Source: Mustelus asterias
Lineage: Eukaryota
DNA: 64,000 nt
Direction of reading: 5' to 3'
NCBI RefSeq assembly: GCF_964213995.1
Contig: NW_027590388.1
Coordinates: forward strand, 1 to 64,000
Shown in pieces: positions 41,806 through 64,000 of this stretch (position 1 is its first letter; every line of letters begins with the position of its first letter). The position numbers and the translations under genes are program-made. A model generated the notes under the pieces. The model did not search any database. It had not been told where the DNA came from and saw only the letters and a list, made by a program, of their open reading frames with translations.

Positions 41806-42535
41806 TACTGGGGGTGTTGGGGCCTCCAGCGGGTGTTTGTGAATCCTCCCCGCCCACCTCCCAGGGTTTCCTTCCTTCCCAGAGATCAGAGTCCTCATTG
41901 ATTTGAGGCCAAAGTGTAACCTCTTATTTATTGTCCCCCTCCCCCATCCTCTGATGTGAACCATCCTCCAGTGGCTGAGCCAGGATGGGGCCGTTAACCT
42001 GGGCCTGTTCCCGGGAGGGAGAAGCCCCGCAGCTGCAAACCAGGGAGCTGACAATGATTCTGAAGGGTTTGCGGATCCACAAAGTGTTTCCAAATCCTCC
42101 CAGCCACCGCCTAACGCTGACTCCGCTTCTCCGGGACAAACAAGCGCCAAGGACAGCAATGACACTGCGCATGCTCCACATCACAATGCCCGGGGGCTGA
42201 TTGACGGCAGCTCCGGGCCAATAGGATGAGGGGGCGGGGCTGGAGGACCGAGCTGGAGCGGCTGGACCTCCAACCAATCGGAGTGAATGAGGGGCGGGAC
42301 CTGAAGCATGCGCAGTGCGGGTAATGGCGACGGACAGACGGACAGTTTTAACCTGGAAGCGAGATCAATCCGAGGTAGAGGGCGGCGTGCGGGGAATGCT
42401 AAATGTGGCGGGTGGGTGGAGAGGCTTCATAAACATGTTGTTCCAACCCAAACCCCGGAAATGAACTTCCCGGTCCCCCCATTTGTACCAAATGGAGCAG
42501 CAGCTTGTAGTGTTAGACCCAGGCTGACTGCCGCC
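41806..42535. promoter_or_regulatory. Bidirectional type-1 promoter between ZNF F (-) and ZNF G (+)
   Basis: Near-identical to 7314-8057. Confidence 0.75.
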
Positions 42536-50029: not shown

Positions 50030-50882
50030 GTTAATTCCAGCATCAAAGTGGGAAGGGGGAGGAAGGTGAGCTGTTGCCTGCCTGCCTGCTGTCCGGCCTG
50101 CCTGCCTGCCTGTCGTCTGGCCTGCCTGCCGTCTGGCCTGCCTGTCTTCCGTCCGTCCGCCCACTGGAGGGTGCTCTCTCCCTGGAGGGAGAGAGGACAC
50201 GGAGTGACTTTCTTTCTTTTTTCTTTCCATCTATGGGAGGGAGGACTGCACGTTTCAACATCGAGGGACTGAGTGGTTGGGCTGGTGCCCTCATCATCAG
50301 AAGGTCGGTGCCTGAAAGGGATGGGGGGGTGAAGTAAATTCAGACTGTTTTTTCCATCTGGGGGGGGGGGCGGCGGTGAAGACACCCCGGACTTGAACTG
50401 TTTGCGCCCAAAAGGGCTGGAGGAGTAAAGTCCCCCACCCACTGCTGCTGCCCCCAACACCGGCGCCCCCAACACCGGCACCCCCTCCCCTCTTTCCCCC
50501 TGACTGGGGCACCGGCCCCCCTCCGTGCCTTGTCCCTCGTCCTCCCTCCTGCTCCTCCTCTCTCCTCTCTCGCTCCGGGGAGAGAGCACCTAGATCCCCA
50601 TCCACCTACCCTGCCCTCCCTTATTTTTCCCTCCTCTTATACGTCCTGCCGTGGCAGAGCCTTCTCGGCCCACCTATGCGGGCGTGGCGGCTGCCAGAGC
50701 CCCCGCCGCTCCCAAGGCCCTGCCACCTTTTTCGTTGCTCACGCGGCAGCTCGGGGTTAAGTGCTACGCCCACCCCGACATGTCCATCGAGGCCTGTGTC
50801 AAGGCAATGGCTGGGGTTGTCGGCCCCTCAGCCATTGTCGCGGCCTCTAAGATGTCCGGCCGGGCCGTATTCTTTTTGAAGG
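50030..50882 (+). mobile_element. L1/Tx1-clade element 5' UTR and ORF1 N-terminus, 3'-truncated
   Basis: PTYAGVAA...GVKCYAHPDMSIEACVKAMAGVVGPSAIVAASKMSGRAVFFLK resembles Tx1 ORF1 (from recall); (gcct)n in the UTR; abrupt fusion to the ZNF promoter at ~50883. Confidence 0.7.
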
Positions 50883-51510
50883 CCACCCACCCGCCACATT
50901 TATCATTCCCCGCGCGCCGCCCTCTACCTTGTATTGTTCTCGCTTCCAAGTTGAAACCGTCCGTCCGCCGCCGCCGCCGCCATTACCCGCACTGCGCATG
51001 CTTCAGGTCCCGCCCCTCATTCACTCCGATTGGTTGGAGGACCAGCCGCTCCCGCTCGGTCCTCCAGTCCCGCCCCCTCTTCCTATTGGTCCGGAGCTGG
51101 CGTCAATCAGCTCCCGGGCATTGTGATGTGGAGCATGCGCAGTGTCATTGCTGGCCTTGGCGCTTGTTTGTCCCGGAGAAGCGGAGTCAGCGTTCGGCGG
51201 TGGCTGGGAGGATTTGGAAACACTTTGTGGATCCGCAAACCCTTCAGAATCATTGTCAGCTCCCTGGTTTGCAGCTGCGGGGCTTCTCCCTCCCTCCCTC
51301 CCGGGAACAGGCCCAGGTTAGCGGCCCCATCCTGGCTCAGCCACTGGAGGATGGTTCACATCAGAGGATGGGGGAGGGGGACAATAAATAAGAGGTTACA
51401 CTTTGGCCTCAAATCAATGAGGGTTCTGATCTCTGGGAAGGAAGGAAACCCTGGGAGGTGGGCGGGAAGGATTCACAAACACCCGCTGGAGGCCCCAACA
51501 TCCCCAATAA
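50883..51510. promoter_or_regulatory. Type-1 bidirectional promoter of ZNF J (+); minus-strand exon MAAAAADGRFQLGSENNT-R at 50983-50928
   Basis: Reverse complement of 41806-42419. Confidence 0.75.
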
Positions 51511-52137
51511 GACCCATTGGTTTTATTGTCAGTCTGCAGACAGGAGCTGGAGAACTGAACCCAGACAGAGGAGAGGGAGGGAGAAAACTGGGAGTGGAGG
51601 AAAGAAATGGTAGAGATGGGTTTGGATTTCAGCCCAGGGAAGAGGGAGAGTGTGTGGGACGGAGATTTACAGATTTGGGGGAACAAGAGAGGAAAAAATG
51701 TTCCAGACGAACTAGAATTGTCTGTTCAGAGTTTGTATCGTGTTCTGACAGTGATGACTTTTCTAAACTGTTTTTACAGGATATTGGAAGTGAAAGATTG
51801 GCAGACAGAAAATTCAAACCGGACATCACATCTGACAAAGTCATTCAGTTCCTTCGGAGCTGAATATCATTGGTCTTTGAATATAGAAAGAGAAATATTT
51901 GTCTGTTCTGCCTGTGGGCAAAGAAATTAAACATCACTGTGACTGGAAAAGCATCGAGACAAACACACACCCGAGTGAGAGTGTTCCAGTGAACTGAATG
52001 TGGAAAGAGCTTTAACCAGTTACACAGCCTGAAAAAACATCACAGTTCACAGCAGGGTGAAACTACGTGTATGTTGTGTGTGTGGATGAGGCTTGAACTG
52101 ATCATCCAACCTGGAGAAACACAAGGACACCCGCACC

Positions 52138-53118
52138 ATGGAGAAACCGTGGAAATGTGTGGATTGTGGGAAGGGATTCGGTTTCCCATCACAACTGGAA
52201 GTTCATCGGCGCAGTCACACTGGGGAGAGACCGTTCACCTGCTCCGTCTGTGGGAAGGGATTCACCCATTCATACAACCTTCTGACTCACCAACGGGTTC
52301 ACACTGGGGAGAGGCCGTTCACCTGTCCTGTGTGTGGGAAGGGATTCACTCGCTCATCCCACATTGTGACACACCAACTTGTTCACACTGATGAGAGAAT
52401 GTTTACATGTTCTGACTGTGAGAAGAGTTTTAAATGCAAAAAGGATCTGCTGACACACCAACGAATTCACACTGGGGAGAGACCGTTCACCTGCTCTGTG
52501 TGTGGGAAAGGATTCATTCAGTCATCCCACTTGCAGACACATCAACTTGTTCACTCTGATAACAAACTTTTTAATTGTTCCCACTGTGCGAAGAGCTTTA
52601 AAAGTAAAAAGGATCTGCTAACGCACCAATATGCTCACACTGGGGAGAGGCCATTCACCTGCTGTGTGTGTGGGAAGGGATTCAGCCGTCCATCTGCCCT
52701 ATTGAACCACCAGAGAATTCACACTGGGGAGAGGCCCTTCACCTGCTCAGACTGTGGGAAGGGATTCACTCGTTCATCCAACTTATTGAATCACCAGCGA
52801 GTTCACACTGGGGAGAGGCCGTTCACCTGCTCTGTGTGTGGGAAGGGATTCAGTCAGTCATCCAACCTGCTGACACACCAGAAAGTTCACAGTGCGGAGA
52901 GGCCACTTACCTGCTCTGTCTGTGGGAAGGGATTTTCTCATTTATCTTATCTTCTGAAACACCAGCGAGTTCACACTGGGGAGAGGCCGTTCACCTGTAA
53001 TGTCTGTGGAAAGGGATTTATTCAGTCATCCCACCTGCTAACACACCAGCGAGTTCACAAACGACTGCAAGGTTTGGATTCTACTCTTAATGATGCTGTT
53101 AATCATATCCAGGACTGA
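52138..53118 (+). CDS. ZNF copy J: 11 fingers plus C-terminal tail [19 protein letters not shown], 326 aa
   Basis: Uninterrupted ORF with gcaccATGg. Confidence 0.92.
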
Positions 53119-53754
53119 ATCGTGTTCACTCTGACAGTCTTCATCCGTTGAGGTTTAATATTCTGAATAAATATGAAATAGACCAGCTTTGTTTTTTAAA
53201 ATTGTTGTAGATTTTTGTCTTTCCCACCTGACTGTTTAACATCACCAGGCTGGAGCTCAGAAAAGACAATCGGGGGTGGATCATATGGCAAACAGGACGC
53301 AGTCCTTCAGGGTCACAGAGGGACAAACAGCACTTTGCTCTTCCTCGTCTCTCTTCACGACAGCAAAGTACCCGTGTGGTTTAATCCTGAGATGTGCAAG
53401 AATCTCAGTCACTCCCTTCTATGTTTCAGCGCTCCTAGACCAGGAACAGAAGTTCCTTTACAACTGTGTTTAGAGTCAGGAAGAACAACAGTGAATGCTG
53501 GAAGCATGCTGCTAAATCAGAGATTGGTGCAAAACTGGGATCTGTTCCTGACTGAGAGTGAAATGGCAGGATTAGATTTCCAGACTGAAAATGCAGAAAA
53601 GTCTAAAATATTTTAATGTGTTTGTGTGTCAGTGCCAGTTTATTGAACAGAAACCAGCTCAAAATAAATTGGTTAAAGTCTGCATTAAAGTAGCAGCTGG
53701 AGAGTTCAAAGGAACCTGTTATCTGCTGGGACAATTAGACAACAATTTGATTCC

Positions 53755-53803
53755 CACTGAGACCCACAGTGAATGAGGCTCCCGCGGGCCTCATACAAAA
53801 AGT
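53755..53803 (+). other. Remnant TCR V 3' end (10 nt) plus orphan 23-bp-spacer RSS
   Basis: cactgagacc, then CACAGTG (53765-53771), 23 nt, ACAAAAAGT (53795-53803); the 10-mer matches the end of the intact V (cgctgagccc) at 8/10. Confidence 0.85.
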
Positions 53804-54189
53804 GACGCAGACGTTTCAGGGTCAGAGAAAAAGAGTCGGATCTCAACGAAAATGCGCAGGAAATGAAGGCCACAATACAGCCCCAGCTGAATAATATTCC
53901 CCCACTGAGCTCAGCCATTGTCAGTGTTGTGAAATGTCACATTTGCCATCCTATTATTCCCGGATCAAATCCAACCATTCTCCGATCCCATCCGCACAAA
54001 ATCTGCAGATTACCCCGGGTGAATAACTTCCTTAATCTGTACTTAGAAAAATTCTGGATTCGGTGCCTATCTGCCCGGCGACACATTTTAAAAGTGATCT
54101 ATTATCAAATGCAGCCTCAGAATTGTTCCATTTTCAAGTCCGTGGAGCAGAAATAATAACTGATTGAAATCAGAGCTTTTCTATTTGGG

Positions 54190-54650
54190 GAATAGAGGGG
54201 TACAGTGAAGATTTACTATGCTGATTCCTGGGATGGCAGCTCTGTCATATGAGGAGAGATTAAATCCGTTAGGATTATATTCACTGCGGTTTCGAATAGT
54301 GAGAGGGGGTCTCATAGAAACTTATAAAATTCTAACAGGGTTCGACAGGGTAGATCCAGAAGACTGTTCCCAATGGTGGAATCCAGAACCATGGGTCATC
54401 TTTTGAAGATAAGGGAAAAACTGAGGTGAAGGGAAATTCCTTCATCCAGAGAGTGTTGAATGTATGGAATTCAATACCACCGAATGTAGTTGAGGCCAAA
54501 ACGTTGTCTGATTTCAAGAAGAAATTTGATATAGCTCTTGGGGCTAAAGGGGTCGAGGGGGAAGGAGGATCAGGATATTGAATTCCATGATCAGCTATGA
54601 TTACGATGAATGGCGGAGAAGGCTCCTGCTTCTAGTTTCTATGTTATGAG
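54190..54650 (+). mobile_element. Degraded CR1 3' fragment
   Basis: ORF 54218-54406 LSYEERL..LGLYSL..GGLIETYKIL. Confidence 0.82.
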
Positions 54651-54774
54651 TCCGTGAAATATTTCCTGGTGCAGAGTTGAGTGACTACTTATCCCCGGTA
54701 TACTTACAGCACTAACTATTAATTATGTTGAGTCCTGGATGCTACTCATTAATCCCTGTACGTTAGGCTGCTGA

Positions 54775-55076
54775 ATCATTGAATCCCGACAATGCAGGAT
54801 GGAGCCTGTCCCGACAACAATCCCACCCAGGCCCTATCCCCGTAACCCACATATTTACCCTGCTATCCCCTGACACTTAGGGTAATTTTGCGTGGCCAAT
54901 CCAGCAAACCTGCACAGTTTAGGAATGTGGAGGGAAACTGGAGCACCTGAGGAAACCCACGCAGACACGGTGAGAAAGTGCAAACTCCACAGAGACAGTG
55001 ACCCGAGGCTGGAATCGAACCCGTGTCCCTGGGGCTGTGAGGCAACAATGCGAACCACTGCGCCACCGTGTCACCC
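54775..55076 (-). mobile_element. HE1-type V-SINE
   Basis: Head and V-domain on the minus strand. Confidence 0.87.
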
Positions 55077-55302
55077 ATAAATGATTAAATTAGAAAAAAG
55101 GATCTGCCTTAAGAAAGATTGATGGACTGAGTTCTGAGGAAAGCGAGTTAACCAGTTAATGAGACAGAATAAGTGATGATGTGGGAGAGAGCAGAGAGAG
55201 AGCAAAGACTTTAGAAATAAGTTTACGGCCAGGGAAGGAATGTGATTGGAAAGTGCCAGCTATATTAAATCATTAACTAACAGTGATTGGTTCACTGGTT
55301 AC

Positions 55303-55625
55303 GGGGCGGCATGATGCCACAATGGTCAGCGCTGCTGTCTCACAGTGTCAGGGACCCGGGTTCAATTCCGGCTTCGGATCACTTTCTGTCTGAGTTTGCA
55401 TGTTCTCCCAGTGTCTACGTGGGTCCCCTTCGGGTTCTCCTGTTTCCTCCCACAGTCCAAAGATGTGCAGGTTAGGTTGATTGGCCATGCTAAATTGACC
55501 CGAGCGTCAGGGGATACGCAGGGTAAATACATGGAGTTGCGGGAGTGGAGCCTGGGTGGTATTGTGACCGGTATAGACTCGATGGGGCGAATGGCCTCCT
55601 TCTGCACTGCAGGGATTTTATGATT
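55303..55625 (+). mobile_element. HE1-type V-SINE abutting the V promoter
   Basis: Full head and tail. Confidence 0.87.
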
Positions 55626-55628
55626 CGC

Positions 55629-55734
55629 AGCTGACGTCAGCTCAGGGAGATGAGCCAATCGCAGCACTGAGAAACGCCTCCCTGTTTCTGAATACTTGAA
55701 GCTGCCTCTGATCTGAGTTCACTCTGTGATATAA
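55629..55734 (+). promoter_or_regulatory. TCR V promoter: CRE, CCAAT and TATA-like box
   Basis: Palindrome AGCTGACGTCAGCT 55629-55642, CCAAT 55655-55659, TATAA 55730-55734; ATG at 55793. Confidence 0.7.
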
Positions 55735-55792
55735 GACTAGAGGCAGCAACTTATTGTAAACATTGTCGCTGCTTACTGTCCAATCAGGAACC

Positions 55793-56230
55793 ATGTATCT
55801 CCTGTGTGCTTTACTGATAACAATGACCACGCTGCCCGGTGAGTCTGAGCTCAGATCCTCAGTGTGTGTTTCATGGGTTATATTTGTTCACAGATTTCTC
55901 ACACATTCTACATTTTGTTGCAGGAATCAATGGCCAAGATTCAGTTTCCCAGGACCCGGCTGAATTAACGGTTCAGGAAGGATTGAACGTAATAGTGAAT
56001 TGTAATTACACAACAACGGATGCTTTTCCAAATCTCTTCTGGTACATCCAGTATCCCGGGGAAGCTCCGAGATATTTACTGCAGAAATATAGCACGGGGG
56101 GCGGAGAAAAGTCTCCAGATTTCCCTGACCGGTTTTCTGCTGATTTGGACAAGGACAAGAAAACAGTTCCTTTAAATATCACTGGGGTCCATGTCTCTGA
56201 CTCTGCCGTGTATCACTGTGCGCTGAGCCC
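55793..56230 (+). CDS. TRAV: T-cell receptor alpha(/delta)-type variable segment: leader exon 55793-55838, intron 55839-55923, V exon 55924-56230
   Basis: Leader MYLLCALLITMTTLPG with phase-1 GT..AG 85-nt intron; V domain with VNC, LFWYIQYPG, DSAVYHCALSP; no stops; followed by an RSS. Confidence 0.92.
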
Positions 56231-56269
56231 CACACTGTTACAAAGGCGCAGTGAGCCCGTACAAAAACC
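56231..56269 (+). other. Recombination signal sequence, 23-bp spacer
   Basis: CACACTG (56231-56237), 23 nt, perfect ACAAAAACC (56261-56269). Confidence 0.95.
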
Positions 56270-56469
56270 TGCAAAGGCACTCTCACCTCCTCTCACTGAA
56301 TCAGATCTGTGACCTGGATTGTGAACTGTTAATACAAACAGAACAATTGTATAACGAAGAGTTAGTCCGAATGTTCTCATTCCATGGTGCTGAATGTGCC
56401 ATTCTTGTTTAAACACTCTGCAATGCTGAGACTGGGAGAAGTGAACAACAGGGGGCAGCATTGCAGCTT

Positions 56470-57560
56470 CCATTTTACTATTATTCCTTCCAAAGTGGAT
56501 AAGCTCACACTTACCAACGCTATACTCCATCTGCCAGATCCTCGCCCACTCACTTAGCCTATCCAAATCTCTCTGCAGACTTACCGCATCCTCCACGCAA
56601 TTCACTTTCCCACTCATCTTTGTGTCATCCGCAAACTTTGTTACCCAACACTCGGTCCCCTCCTCCAGATCGTCTATGCATATGGTAAATACTTGAGGCC
56701 CCGGCACCAATCCCTGTGGCACGCCACTAGTCACCAACTGCCAACCAGAAAAGCGCCCATTTATTCCAACTCTCTGCTTCCTGTTAGATAGCCAATCCCC
56801 AATCCACGCTAACACTTTACCCCTAACTCCGTGCACCCTGATTTTCTGCAGCAACCTTTTGTGAGGCACCTTATCGAACGCCTTCTGGAAATCCAAAAAC
56901 ACCACATCCACTGGTTCCCCTCTGTCAACCGCACTCGTTACATCAACATAAAAATCCAGTAAATTTGTCAAACACGACTTTCCCTTCATGAATCCATGCT
57001 GCGTCTGCTTGATCAAACCATTTTTTTCCAGGTGTCCTGCTATTTCTTCCTTAATGATGAATTCCAGCAATTTCCCAACTACGGACGTTAAGCTAACCGG
57101 CCTGTAGTTACCCGCCTTTTGTCTACCTCCTTTTTTAAACAGTGGCGTCACATTAGCTGTTTTCCAATCAGCCGGCACTTCCCCAGAGTCCAGCGTATTT
57201 TGATAAATTACAACCAACGCATCCTCTATTACTTCTGCCATTTCTTTCAGTCCCCTGGGATGCATTCCATCCGGGCCCGGGGACTTGTCTACCTTTAGTC
57301 CCATTAGCCTCCCAAGCACTACCTCTTTAGTAATAGTAATCATTTTAAGGACCTCATCCCCTACAGTCCCATGACCGTCAATTTTCGGTAAGCTATTTGT
57401 GTCCTCTACCGTGAAGACTGATACAAAAAACTTGTTTAAGGCCTCAGCCATTTCCTCGTTTCCCATTATTAAATCCCCCTTCTCATCTACTAAGGGTCCA
57501 ACATTTACTTTAGCTACTCTTTTCCTTTTTATATATTTGTAAAAACTTTTACTATCTCTC
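56470..57560 (-). mobile_element. CR1 ORF2 RT fragment with an open frame
   Basis: KSPGPDGMHPR, NYRPVSLTSV, LDFQKAFDKVPH, KFADDTK. Confidence 0.95.
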
Positions 57561-57566
57561 TGTCCC

Positions 57567-57770
57567 TCCCCCCCCCCCTGGGCTTTGCCCCCCCCCCCCC
57601 CTGGGCTTTGCCCCCCCCCCCTGGGCTTTGCCCCCCCCCCCCCGGGCTTTGCCCCCCCCCCCGGGCTTTGCCCCCCCCCGGGCTTTGCCCCCCCCCCCCC
57701 GGGCTTTGCCCCCCCTGGGCATTGCCCCCCCCCGAGCATTGCCCCCCCCCGAGCATTGCCCCCCCAACCC
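57567..57770 (-). repeat. G-rich minisatellite (caaagcccNg(n)), G-quadruplex-prone
   Basis: About 10 units of gggctttg or gagcattg separated by long C runs on the + strand. Confidence 0.85.
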
Positions 57771-57834
57771 ACACATCCTGGGACACTAAGTGGCAATTGA
57801 GCATGGCCAATCAACCTAACCTGTACATCTTATA

Positions 57835-57993
57835 AACAGTAAGAAGTCTCACAATACCAGGTTAAAGTCCAACAGGTTTATTTGATCGCACGAGCTTTCG
57901 GAGCACTGCTCCTTCATCAGGTGAATGGCCACTCACCTGATGAACCTGGTGTTGTGTGCCCACCCCAGTCCAACGCCGACATCTCCACGTCAT
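57835..57993. mobile_element. Inverted Penelope pLTR fragments
   Basis: Same family as 15317-15445 and 17055-17393; hairpin ttcatcaggtga / tcacctgatgaa (57913-57944). Confidence 0.75.
57889..57923 (-). ncRNA. Minimal type-I hammerhead ribozyme with intact core
   Basis: CAC-CUGAUGA-A-GGAGC(AGU)GCUCC-GAAA-GC-UC-GUG. Confidence 0.7.
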
Positions 57994-58729
57994 CTTATGG
58001 ACTGCAGATTGATTCTCTGTAGAATCCTGTTCTTTCTCTCTATCAACATTCCTCTGCAAGTTTTATTTCCTTCAAGTACCCATCCAATTTCATTTTGAAA
58101 TGATTGAATCTTCTGTTCCACCATCCTCATAGGCAGCGAGTTCTAGATCATGTGCTCTCCCTACCTAAATATAAATCTTCCTCAAATCCCTGCTCTACCA
58201 CTACTCAAGTAATGTCCTGTATGTTACACTTTTATCCAGTATTATAGACATCTGTCTGGCAGCCTGCATGGAGATTTTCAGCTCCCTGTGTCCAGGACAG
58301 GAAGCCGTGAGCATGGATCTGTCAATCAGCCTCAATCAGCACCTTCAGGAGAATTGGGAGGGTGAATATTAGATACAGCAGAGTGAGAATTGAGGGAGAG
58401 TGTGTGGGATGGAGATTTACTGCGTTTGGGGAATGAGAGAGGAAAGAATGTTCCATAGAAACTAGAATTGTCTGTTCTGAATTTCTGTCCTGTACTGACA
58501 CTGATGAATTTTGTAATCTCCTTTTGCAGGATATCAGAAGGTGGGGATTTACAGACAGAAATCTCGAATCAAACGTCACATCAACATCTGACAGACATTT
58601 GATTGATTGGGACCCGAATATCATTGGCCTTTCAATCTTGAAGGAGAAATCTTTTAATGTTCTGTCTGCGTCAGAATTTTTTATAACATAAATGTGACTG
58701 GAAATACACCAAGACACAGACACACCTGA

Positions 58730-58837
<108 letters not shown>

Positions 58838-58851
58838 TGAGATTTAATTGA

Positions 58852-59310
<459 letters not shown>

Positions 59311-61124
59311 TGACAGGGGTTGGATTCTGTTTTATTGCTGCTGTTAATCACATCCAGGACTGAACCATGTTCATTCTGACAGTTGGTGAAGTGGGAGGGT
59401 CGGAGGGTTTCTTTCTGCTGGACTGGCCGGTCTCACGACTTTGCTTCTAGTTCGCTGATGCTCTTTGAGCCTGGGAGAGCACATTGCCACTGAAATGATC
59501 CACAAAAGCTGATGAAGGACATTTATTTTATCCTGGATAGTAAATAGTGTTTTTCCTACCACTACAGGTAGATTTAAAATAAATACAGAAAGGACTGGAA
59601 AAACACAACACGTCTTGCAGCATCTGTGGAGAGAGAAACAGTGTTAATGTTTCACACTACTGGATTGGGAATCAATCTTGTAAACCTCCTCTGAACTGCT
59701 TCCAATGTATTTATATCCTTTGTTTAATAGGAGACAAAATTGTACCCTGTGTTCAAGGTGCAATCTCAGCAACGCCCTGCACAACTGAAGCATAACATCT
59801 TTACTTCTATGTTCAATTTCTCTCAGAATAAAGGATAACATTCCATTTATAAGAACTTTGATTTGTTTGAACTAAGATTTATGAGGGTTCTCTTGTTTAC
59901 AATAACTTCCCTCATCGTAAATCACACCAGGTTCCAGTGACTTAATCATATGGCAAGAAAGAACACTTTAAATGGTGAATTCAGAAAGTTTATTAACCAT
60001 TAAAAATGTAACGAGTCAGAAAGATAAAAAAGCAAAGTATCGATCAACAGCAAAAGGAGGAGAGCTTAACTTCAACTTCTCCATCCTTCTCAAACCAGGA
60101 CATGAAGTGATGGCTCTGAAAACGTGGATAACTTGTAAAACTAACAGCTCTCAACGTCTCTCTGTAGGGGACAGTGTGAGGCACTGCTGCCTCACAGCAG
60201 AGGGTTCGAGTCCCGGCTTGGGTCACTGGCTGTGCGGAGTTCGCCCATTCTCCCCGTGTCTGTGCAGGTTTCCTCTGGGTGCTCCGGTTTCCTCCCACAG
60301 TCCGAAAGACGTGCTGGTTGGGTACATTGGCCATGCTAAATTCTTCCTCAGTTTACCCAAACAGGCACCAGAGTGTGGCGACTGGGGGATTATCAGAGTA
60401 ACTTCATTGCAATGTTAATGTAAGTCTATGTGTGACACTAATAAACAAACTATAAAAAAAGTTAACTTTTAAAAACTTCTACCAGATTGGTTTCTCGAAT
60501 CCCCTTTTTTATACTTTCAAAATGTAGAAAGCCATCCTCAGCTAATTGTTAGGAATTAGCCAATTGGTCTATAACTTGTCAATAATGAAATTGATTTGGT
60601 TTTTAGCTAATTGCACATATTGTCTTAATTTTAAGACATACCTTTCTCTCAAACGATATCTCTTAGCTTGGGGTAGCCCAAGTGTTGACCGATAATTGGT
60701 TCACATCAGTCATTCAATGTTGAGACATCTTGAACAGGAGCCGATTCATTCCCTCCAGTCAAGGTTAACAAGTCCTTTCATCTTTCTTTATTCTGTCAGC
60801 ATGGGAAGGGAACATCTTATAATTCCCACAGCATTTTAACCATTCTTAAAGTGTTTATAATTCTAAAAGTTATAAACCTGTGTTCAAATTTATATTTCCA
60901 GCCTTTATAACATATGTATTAATGAATCATTTATTATTTAATTGTCTCACAATTAATGCTGTCTATTTAACTAATCTGGCTGCTTTCCAATTGTGGGAAC
61001 TTCAGGCCACAAAAAAGGTAGTTAGAGTCGTAGAGGTTTACAGCATGGAAACAGGCCTTTCGGCCCAACTTGTCCATGCTGCCCAGTTTTTACCACTAAG
61101 CTAGTCCTAATTGCCCTGGAATAT

Positions 61125-61265
61125 TACTCATGATCTGTGCTTCCAAGCATTTTGAATGTGCATCTACAACAAGCAAAAACATGTGATTCATGAAAGGCCC
61201 CCCAAGGGCCACATGTAGTCTGGACCACGGCCTATCAGGCCACTCCCGAGGATGAAGTGGTAATG
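61125..61265 (-). mobile_element. Gypsy/Ty3 integrase fragment
   Basis: PLHPREWPDRPWSRLHVALGGPFMNHMFLLVVDAHSKCLE. Confidence 0.82.
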
Positions 61266-61888
61266 TACCCAGTGTGTTGTGGGGAATGAACTCAGAAGAA
61301 TCATTCAACACTCAAACCTGATTCAATCGACAAACAGTTTATTGAGCTAGGCCAGTGGGGAGAAGCCACAGGGGCTGACCATGTGTAACTCCACCCAACA
61401 AAGAATATCATCAATTCTTATCCAGTTACTCAGCCCATCCCGGCTGGACACAATCCAATCAGAATGGTGATAGATTACATACATTATAGGTTCAATAAAA
61501 TTAGTATCTGGGCATTATGGGGCTTTGTGATCATCTCATGGACAGATAGGTGCCCCCATCATGATGTTTTCCAGACCCCCTCGTCTACCATCCTTGGGGT
61601 TTTCTTTGTACATAGACTCAGTTTGAAAAGGGGTGGATTAAAAATTCTCAAATGGATGTCAGCACCCTTCCTTTGTTTCAATCTAATGACCACACGGTCT
61701 GGGAACATTTCTATTTAATAATCTCTCCTTTTAAACTCTGTTCTTCAGTATCCAATTCCAGAATTTTCCTTTTCATTGTGTTAATTGTGTCAGGATTAAA
61801 TCTTTGGACCTGACAGGAAGTTTAACCCAAGATCAATCCAACACAGGATTGGTCAGAATCGTTTCATATGTACCAAATTTTAAATAAC

Positions 61889-62465
61889 TGAAGGGGGCGA
61901 CCTTTATGCTTAATATCATGGATATTTTTACGTGTGTATATCAAATTTATTTTAAAATATTGTCAACAGTTCACAGCAATGCGATGACTCATGGAGAGGC
62001 TCCTTGCACCCCCTAATCACTTCAGACAGCCTTAATCACTTTAGACTCCAAGCAGGGAAACACAGACAATAGCTCAACTGATTAGATTATGCAAGAAGCT
62101 CAAATCACAAAGGGAGCCCTCCAGAAACAGATCAGCCCAGGGGAAATGGGATCAGCTCCACCTATCTATAATGGCTGTTTTAATATCTCGCTATTGTGCC
62201 ACTGCTTTGTGTTATGAGCTGGTACTGATCATGTAACTTGTCGTAAATGTTGAACCTATTACCATATGTTTGGCATGAAGTTCAAAACCCTATAAACTGT
62301 AAAGCGCATAATGGCCAGGCAGAGCAGTTGACGAGCAGCTGTCTCTCCCCAGGCCTGCGGTTTTGTTATTTTAAACAGAGAATAAAATTTGTGTTGCCTT
62401 TTTGTACTGTACTCATGTCTGCTTGTCTTTCATGCTGGTAGGAAGTGAGAAAACTTCCCCTTACA
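61889..62465 (+). mobile_element. 577-bp solo LTR with 5-bp TSD ATAAC
   Basis: TGAAGGGG...CCCCTTACA ends, TATAAA ~62291, AATAAA 62381; empty site in the paralog near 12680. Confidence 0.9.
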
Positions 62466-63329
62466 ATAACCATGACAAATTAAAACTCTCAATTTCATGA
62501 GTGAGTTTTATCTGGATTAAAATTCCCACATGTTTAGTAAAATATCCTGGAATCCTGTCTCTGGACAGTAAATATGGCTCCAGGTTCATAACTTTTGAAA
62601 AAAAAAGCTTTATTCATTACACTTCCATTTTAAAAATCTGTTTGATTTAAATCACAGACAAAAAACCTCAAAGCTTAAAGCGTTCAACCCACAAATATCA
62701 TCCACACACCAACAGAGAAACTTAGCATGTGCTTTACAATAATAACCAAAATTAATTACTTAAGCATTCTTCTGATTCTGTTTTTAAACTCCCAAAAATG
62801 CCTTTAATTAAAGACTCAAGGTAAGGTTAATTCCCCAGAAAGATAAACCTTAACAAATGTAGCCCAAAACAATGATAAAACACATCTACAAACATCCACA
62901 CAAAAACAAACAAAACACACAGATTCTCACAGCTTGCAAATTTCAAACAATGAATCCTCAGCATTCTCTCTCGCAGCTATAACTTCTTAAAGCGACAGAG
63001 CACTACAAGCTCACAACTCCTTGATTAAAATAAGATGCAAGATCCTTCATTGTAACTTAACCCTTTTTAAGCCAACTTCCAAGGCCTGATTTTATCAGCA
63101 ACATCTAATCTTTGTTAATTTAAAATCCCAAACACGTTACCACCTGCAAACTCTTTGTTCTTTATCTGGTGTTGAGGTGACAACAAAATAAAATTCTCAG
63201 TTATTCCAAATTCCTCCAGGGTATGCTTAAAATTTCCACATTTAACTGGCTCCAATAAATCCACAATTATAAACTAAAATAGACACGAGTTTCTGGGTGA
63301 TTTAAAAACAAGTTAAAAACAAGATGCCA

Positions 63330-64000
63330 GAGGAAAGATAGAACAGGAGGAAAGAAAGGAGGGGGAGTTGCACTTTTGATTCAGGAAAACATCACGGCAG
63401 TACTGAGAGGGGATATATCCGAGGGTTCGCCTACTGAGTCAAAAGGGTTGAACTGAGAAAGAAGGGGGAAATCACTTTGATATGGTTGTACTATAGGCCC
63501 CCAAATAGTCGGTGGGAAATTGAGGAGCAAATATGTAAGGAGATTACAGATAGTTCCAAGAAAAATTGGGTGGTAATAGTCGGGGATTTTAACTTTCCCA
63601 ACATTGACTGGGACAGCCATAGTATTAGAGGCTTGGATGGAGAGAAATTTGTTGAGTGTATTCAGGAGGAATTTCTCATTCAGTATGTGGATGGCCCGAC
63701 TAGAGAGGGGCAAAAGTTCACCTCCTCTTGGGAAATAAGGAAGGGCAGGTGATAGAAGTGTGAGTGAGGGATCACTTTGGGACCAGTGACCATAATTCCA
63801 TTAGTTTTAAGATACCTATGGAAAATGATTGGTCAGGTCCAAAAGTTAAAATTCTAAATTAGGGAAAGGCCAATGTTGATGGTATCAGGCAGGAACTTTC
63901 GACAGTTAACTGGGGGAGTCTGTGGGAAGGCAAAGGGACGTCTGGTAAGTGGGAGGCTTTCAAAAGTGTTTTAACCAGGGTTCAGGGTAAGCACATTGCT
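63330..64000 (+). mobile_element. CR1 ORF2 endonuclease fragment
   Basis: YYRPPNS, VIVGDFNFPNIDW, QYVDGPTREG, SDHN. Confidence 0.9.

Follow-up and report, generated by a model that had tools for sequence, protein, structure and literature searches.

A V(D)J recombination signal with a 23-nt spacer (23-RSS) stands behind the zinc finger (ZNF) gene ZNF J of the shark Mustelus asterias, preceded by the last 10 nt of a V exon, in the window analysed here (the whole stretch of 64,000 nucleotides examined, on contig C356). On its heptamer, spacer and nonamer this orphan RSS is a true TCR V signal. The probable explanation is an ordinary germline double-strand-break repair junction that left a headless 23-RSS, which would probably be used occasionally for harmless non-coding joints. 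The features of the window are the following.

50883..51316, forward strand: promoter and predicted non-coding exon 1 of ZNF J, beginning at the left edge of paralog homology
51317..51779, forward strand: predicted intron of ZNF J, GT...AG in the sequence
51616..64000, forward strand: core of the amplified unit, 99%+ identity to the copies on C71, C105, C165 and C87
52138..53118, forward strand: ORF of ZNF J, 326 aa with 11 C2H2 fingers (ORF and domain search)
53166..53171, forward strand: AATAAA, first candidate poly(A) signal, read in the sequence
53663..53668, forward strand: AATAAA, second candidate poly(A) signal, read in the sequence about 90 nt before the junction
53755..53756, forward strand: junction, the letters CA, a 2-nt microhomology common to the ZNF parent and the V parent
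53755..53764, forward strand: V stub of 10 nt, TCR alpha/delta V family A, the same as the intact V exon ends in L014-L020
53755..57271, forward strand: V-array-derived insert of about 3.5 kb, about 95% identical to C315 and C1630 in two blocks
53765..53803, forward strand: orphan 23-RSS, heptamer and nonamer the same as those of intact family-A V genes
55793..56230, forward strand: intact TCR alpha/delta V, leader at 55793-55838 and V exon from 55924
56231..56269, forward strand: 23-RSS of the intact V, read in the sequence
56469..57557, reverse strand: LINE (reverse-transcriptase) fragment containing the right end of the insert

The orphan RSS consists of the heptamer CACAGTG at 53765, a spacer of 23 nt and the nonamer ACAAAAAGT ending at 53803, in agreement with the structure proposed in an earlier sequence-only reading of this DNA. 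It is the sole match in the window to a 23-RSS with a consensus heptamer (chance expectation 0.01), and matrix scoring places it second of the 2632 CAC sites in the window, the first being the RSS of the intact V. The matrix was built from 13 further V signals, and the score of the orphan RSS is among the lower ones that true V signals reach. The spacer contains a 7-bp inverted repeat (53772-53794) that is inherited from the V family, being present in intact V signals. The same reading had followed the match to the ZNF paralog F as far as 53754 (equivalent to 39467) and had taken the 10-mer before the heptamer for the end of a TCR V; both observations stand, with all 17 of the closest ZNF parents that were read extending the match through 53756 and the 10-mer being the exact C-A-L-R-P 3' end of intact V genes at 7 of 7 parent loci read. 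The ZNF and V sides overlap by CA with no added bases, and the position of the break is ambiguous by 0-2 nt due to the microhomology.

Both parental types are present in the assembly. A search with 53600-54150 gave 40 scored matches, 13 of them full-length at about 100% and 27 starting at 53755 or 53757; the seven of these 27 V-side parents that were read all have intact V exons with the C-A-L-R-P end and the same RSS, and the parent type with intact V and RSS occurs at no fewer than 22 places at 96-98%. When the ZNF flank served as query, the same 13 places were recovered together with 27 matches that end at 53756, and the 17 of these 27 that were read all go on into ordinary ZNF flank like paralog F. 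Exact parent copies were not among the matches, the best being 97-98%, and the repair signature is therefore read from paralogs. The insert contains, in order, the V stub, the RSS, the intact V and the LINE. The intact V has its leader, V-set exon, both cysteines and the Trp as well as its 23-RSS; its best single-chain matches are TCR alpha chains and its closest named relatives are shark proteins. The LINE is cut off at 57271 in two V-array parents and runs on in the window. ZNF arrays flank the insert to the left and to the right (C356 holds 42 ZNF clusters), whereas five stretches sampled from the parent V arrays, 107 kb in all, contained no zinc fingers. It had been proposed that the ZNF gene stands where a V exon was lost, which is true relative to the next V; from the arrangement of the flanks, however, it looks as though a piece of V array has lodged in a ZNF array and not a ZNF gene in a V cluster, such that the direction of the event would be reversed.

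In this probable repair event, the left end of the insert would have been joined via the 2-nt microhomology and the right end via homology between two copies of one LINE. In keeping with this, both parent types exist, the two sides overlap by 2 nt, no CAC heptamer lies close to the break in the ZNF parent, and V exons of the V field are often broken internally, at other positions (relic breakpoints at about -137, -46, -150, mid-exon and -30 to -38). A simple local deletion between a ZNF gene and a neighbouring V was also considered. Among the extant parent regions it finds no support, since none of the eight ZNF-parent regions read matches the insert downstream and the closest ZNF and V parents have no listed contig in common; a suitable ancestral arrangement may have been lost. 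The junction also falls in TGCA (WGCW), an overlapping AID hotspot at the V end, the letters of the V parent around the break being TGTG-CA; in sharks, WRCH/DGYW motifs of TCR alpha V are targets of AID (PMC5931798). An AID-induced break is nevertheless a very improbable origin, the motif having four letters and having been spotted post hoc, with PMC5931798 dealing with thymocytes and no sign here of AID in germ cells.

What counts against a random break is its position, which lies within the 3 positions expected of a RAG cut at a cryptic heptamer. The chance that one random V-array break would fall in that 3-nt window is about 0.05% (one V per about 5.9 kb), a figure softened only by the many V/ZNF borders and by the choice of the finding for its adjoining RSS. 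By sequence comparison, the V side of the junction starts directly after TACTGTG, within the 2-nt microhomology. TACTGTG is the cryptic heptamer of VH replacement, cutting at which leaves a footprint (PMC3918983, PMC3585286, PMC3526766), and a germline RAG cut of the V at this heptamer, with the 10-nt coding end ligated to a break that had arisen independently downstream of the ZNF gene, would place the stub exactly where it begins. RAG activity has been argued for in shark germ cells (PMC2193156; PMC2193153), and the assembly itself holds signal joints (below). This origin is nonetheless unlikely, in our judgement and not by calculation, for several reasons. An RSS is lacking on the ZNF side, where the 35 nt past the break contain no CAC heptamer, and there is no nonamer behind the cryptic heptamer. 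Signal joints of the cryptic heptamer were found in none of three matches (with a partial pattern, and with a deletion circle that would be lost), and no second junction at the same site was seen among 66 23-RSSs in non-V context (again a partial pattern) or among family-A signals. Other V relics break elsewhere, at the positions given above, and cryptic signals are cut by RAG 30-50 times less than true ones (PMC2150985), a true RSS lying 10 nt away. The resemblance to a VH-replacement footprint is limited to a retained stub beginning exactly past the cryptic heptamer; unlike VH replacement, the partner is a ZNF flank without an RSS instead of an upstream V, and the V is unrearranged, of TCR type and inherited. 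RAG transposition of a signal-end fragment, the hallmarks of which are an insert starting at the heptamer, a second RSS at its end and a 5-bp target duplication (PMC2193153), was rejected, 10 nt of V preceding the heptamer and the right end lying within a LINE.

Four perfect heptamer-to-heptamer signal joints are present in the assembly (control pattern 0), those in the V field being 12/23 joints.

C71:14,376,803-804 (L184): signal joint in the V field
C110:113,696 (L189): signal joint in the V field
C122:398,928 (L168): signal joint in the V field
C8:50.40 Mb (L126:1528-1529): signal joint in a light-chain-type array

In two of the three V-field joints the 5' 12-RSS of a D segment is fused to a V-type signal, and unjoined copies of that D are found on C90, C110, C111 and C115. 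A loose version of the pattern gave 27 matches, mostly on contigs without receptor genes; counted here are the four in which both nonamers were read. The three V-field joints suggest RAG action on inherited DNA of the TCR V locus, and the four together lend some support to a germline RAG cut at the ZNF junction. As a separate observation, the light-chain-type V-J cluster on C8 has its intervening segment doubled with the perfect signal joint mid-way, as if an excision circle had recombined back.

The V field in which these joints lie is extensive. A pattern of V end plus 23-RSS gave 354 matches in the assembly (control pattern 0); among the 100 matches listed, 21 are on C71:4.5-17.1 Mb in both orientations and 72 on C87-C124, several of which also bear ZNF parents. 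Across C71:4.5-18.45 Mb and C87-C124, V segments in both orientations are intermixed with C2H2-ZNF arrays; on C71 the V field covers more than 12 Mb, and zinc fingers extend as far as the J-alpha cluster. The field also holds a second amplified V relic at six places, in which about 30-38 nt of V and a 23-RSS stand behind unrelated retroelement-like DNA.

C71:7.53, 14.25 and 15.42 Mb (L162-L164): sites of the second V relic, which is also found on C90, C111 and C138

At L168:4030-4250 and in L167, 23-RSS copies are stacked head-to-tail behind one V family. A pattern search for headless signals with an 8-nt stub found none in the assembly. Away from any receptor locus seen, a 37-bp tandem satellite at C6:115.022-115.030 Mb and on, whose unit is a consensus heptamer, 23 nt and ACAAAAAC, forms a long head-to-tail array of 23-RSS look-alikes and dominates the matches to a loose 23-RSS pattern.

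The earlier reading had supposed that the ZNF gene could be joined to a J segment. No J, C or credible 12-RSS was found in the whole 385,734 bases of the window's contig C356, which has no N and carries two V islands. The joining is geometrically possible for one of the 13 copies of the junction described below, that on C71 (20.4 Mb; copy at 15,162,672, forward strand), which is in cis to J-alpha and C-alpha. Here at least 26 J-alpha segments with 12-RSS lie at 18.372-18.417 Mb. The C exon (18.419 Mb) and the exon for the transmembrane part (18.432 Mb) follow on the same, forward strand, placing the orphan signal 3.21 Mb upstream of J-alpha/C-alpha, in deletional orientation and inside the V field. 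C-alpha was located via J-type 12-RSSs and tblastn; the profile of the Pfam TCR-alpha constant family PF09291 found nothing. C-alpha was not found on the other 11 copy-bearing contigs, and no delta D-J-C was found within 100 kb before the C71 J cluster. A second J-alpha/C-alpha cluster lies on C546:137-240 kb with a C exon 84% identical to that of C71; on this identity the two distinct clusters (C71:18.37-18.43 Mb and C546) would represent a duplicated TCR alpha constant locus.

The C71 copy, as a V-less 23-RSS upstream of J-alpha in deletional orientation, raises the question of a functional deleting element like deltaRec, in which ZNF transcription would open the RSS, megabase deletions of V, NAR-TCR and ZNF DNA would occur at high frequency in alpha-beta thymocytes, and this use would have driven the amplification. 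The RSS is unchanged in the 13 copies and has a same-strand promoter 2.7 kb upstream, non-coding transcription is known to make RSSs accessible (PMC3655464), and deltaRec provides a precedent (PMC2198968). This role is improbable, however, as the copies are 0.1% apart, indicating recent spread, with the RSS no better conserved than its flanks, and the intact V and several ZNF genes of the unit are equally possible as the selected cargo, if any of it was selected. A combined account, in which a germline RAG cut at the replacement heptamer gave a V signal to a transcribed ZNF gene and the chimera spread as a promoter-driven deltaRec-like element, is very improbable; were it true, T cells would delete megabases of ZNF genes and would differ clonally in ZNF dosage. 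Nothing in the sequences compared points to selection for the deleting or decoy role that had been suggested.

The junction occurs at exactly 13 places in the assembly, as found with two patterns, and some of these places may be second haplotypes such that the number of loci may be below 13. Over 3.5 kb the copies differ by a mean of 0.11% with 4 of 78 pairs identical, and differ by 1.6-2% from 17 ZNF parents and by 3.2-3.5% from the seven V parents compared. The unit continues beyond the window to about 72.6 kb of C356 and starts at 47.5 kb in some copies, the near-identity running from 47.5-51.6 kb to 72.6 kb in six other copies (a partial reading, where these are covered that far). At about 72.6 kb it ends in another ZNF-J-type paralog in direct orientation. 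This pattern of divergence fits one junction event followed by recent spread, and a unit of at least 20 kb flanked by direct ZNF-J-type paralogs may have spread by unequal recombination among ZNF paralogs. A misassembly, or a single junction duplicated by the assembler, would find some support in the location of 12 of the 13 copies on contigs below 3 Mb in a very repetitive region, and in the possible second haplotypes. It is highly unlikely, given that the copies have differences of their own, 74 of 78 pairs being distinct, and flanks that diverge at different points, that C356 has no N, and that fixed diagnostic columns set all 13 copies apart from the parents on both sides.

Public sequencing runs were consulted over window positions 53100-56450, and no RNA run was listed as containing the sequence. 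Run X1, which may be the source sample, has a contig of 98 letters that spans the junction without a mismatch. Only 28-30 of these letters belong to the ZNF side, short of the 31-letter rule; the contigs of X1 track the window from the ZNF gene through the RSS to the intact V. The depth of the junction contig was 46 and that of the parent-V contig 4.4, values that do not serve as expression measures in a run of unrecorded kind; the continuity and depth of the X1 contigs would fit read-through RNA. Runs X2-X5 (three other samples with the same label) and X6 (another label) show parent-type letters, and X3, X4 and X6 contain both parental loose ends. No junction contig was among the contigs listed for X2-X6, contigs being unable to show absence, and a presence/absence polymorphism of the junction across individuals is only a lead. 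Likewise, no loose end of a coding joint behind 53764 was among the contigs listed, in runs whose tissues are not on record and whose contigs cannot show absence.

The promoter and exon 1 region of ZNF J is 90-94% identical to paralogs at 42419 and 7940, with an exon 1 splice donor predicted from sequence alone. The ORF is open in 13 of 13 copies, and the domain search found no effector or other domain besides the C2H2 fingers. Its stop lies 637 nt upstream of the junction, close to the roughly 650 nt first estimated, and a joint product would code for nothing, as had been foreseen. The suggestion that joining would give the ZNF gene a new 3' end is not supported, the AATAAA signals at 53166 and 53663 preceding the RSS and a joint lying behind the likely transcript end. 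Since these poly(A) signals come before the RSS no new ZNF product is expected, and a new 3' end would need read-through. Two other open frames lie nearby on the forward strand. One begins at an upstream out-of-frame ATG (52071) and runs for 106 codons into the beginning of the ZNF ORF, with comparable frames present in other ZNF paralogs, and an open frame at 50594-50882 ends exactly at the start of the ZNF J promoter. The latter has no Pfam match and presumably resembles the start of a Tx1-type ORF1.

Truncated V relics and V pseudogenes with intact RSSs form a known general class, and the kappa-deleting element (Kde) is a V-less deleting signal of the deltaRec kind. The ZNF-linked RSS is a member of this known class, as a V relic with an intact RSS and a V-less signal: it has no V exon before its 23-RSS and is in cis, upstream and deletional relative to J in one of 13 copies. 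As in other V relics, most of the V exon is gone, the RSS is intact and low-level non-productive use would be expected; it differs from them in the 10 nt of V left, the open ZNF gene with its own promoter in front and the amplification to 13 places. The deltaRec of human and mouse is similarly a 23-RSS without a V exon upstream of J-alpha, use of which would remove the DNA in between and yield no coding product, and is described as conserved between the two species, with a conserved upstream protein-binding region and high-frequency rearrangement (PMC2198968). In contrast, the ZNF-linked RSS is young, multi-copy and a left-over V signal behind a ZNF gene. The germline-joined Ig genes of sharks also represent inherited rearrangement at a shark receptor locus, and signal joints are held by this assembly too; those Ig genes were joined RSS to RSS with both signals removed, whereas the present junction retains its RSS and has a receptor gene on only one of its two sides (PMC2193156, PMC2193153). 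In the elasmobranch antigen-receptor complex, TCR alpha/delta V exons are likewise scattered far from J-C (PMC12227049). The main text of that report contains no occurrence of 'zinc' or 'ZNF', whereas here the V field is mixed with ZNF arrays up to the J cluster. Among the papers listed by a literature search, mainly of openly available main texts, none dealt with ZNF genes within the TCR V field of sharks or with the fusion of a ZNF gene to an RSS. A ZNF partner, an amplification to 13 places and a V field interleaved with ZNF arrays were likewise absent from the papers listed.

On the preferred explanation, the orphan RSS would act in thymocytes as a blank V. RAG requires a 12/23 RSS pair and not a V exon, and TCR alpha undergoes successive V-J rearrangements. 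Mouse thymocytes make low-level use of Vbeta pseudogenes and of cryptic signals (bioRxiv 10.64898/2026.09.01.748595). From the dispensability of the V exon, this use in mouse and the opening of RSSs by transcription, occasional use follows as likely, and we would expect with reasonable confidence that the orphan RSS is used at some level in thymocytes. Each joint would delete the DNA between the RSS and a J or D with a junction that codes for nothing, and a later V-J rearrangement could overwrite it, which would explain the tolerance of a blank signal. The blank signals number 13 against about 350 V-linked ones. The ZNF protein would be unchanged, and the mRNA probably too.

The junction is probably what ordinary repair left behind in a restless locus, and it illustrates how a single step can create a V-less signal of the deltaRec/Kde kind that then multiplies. 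Its 13 copies offer a PCR-ready test of whether the promoter of a host gene suffices to make an orphan RSS a target for RAG. The setting may be more important than the junction, being a TCR alpha V field interleaved with ZNF genes and holding perfect signal joints. As ZNF arrays lie within the V field up to the J cluster, every T cell would lose many ZNF genes through ordinary V-J joining. RAG also appears to have been at work on the inherited DNA of the TCR alpha/delta locus. The architecture of this shark locus and its retained signal joints are therefore of interest in their own right.
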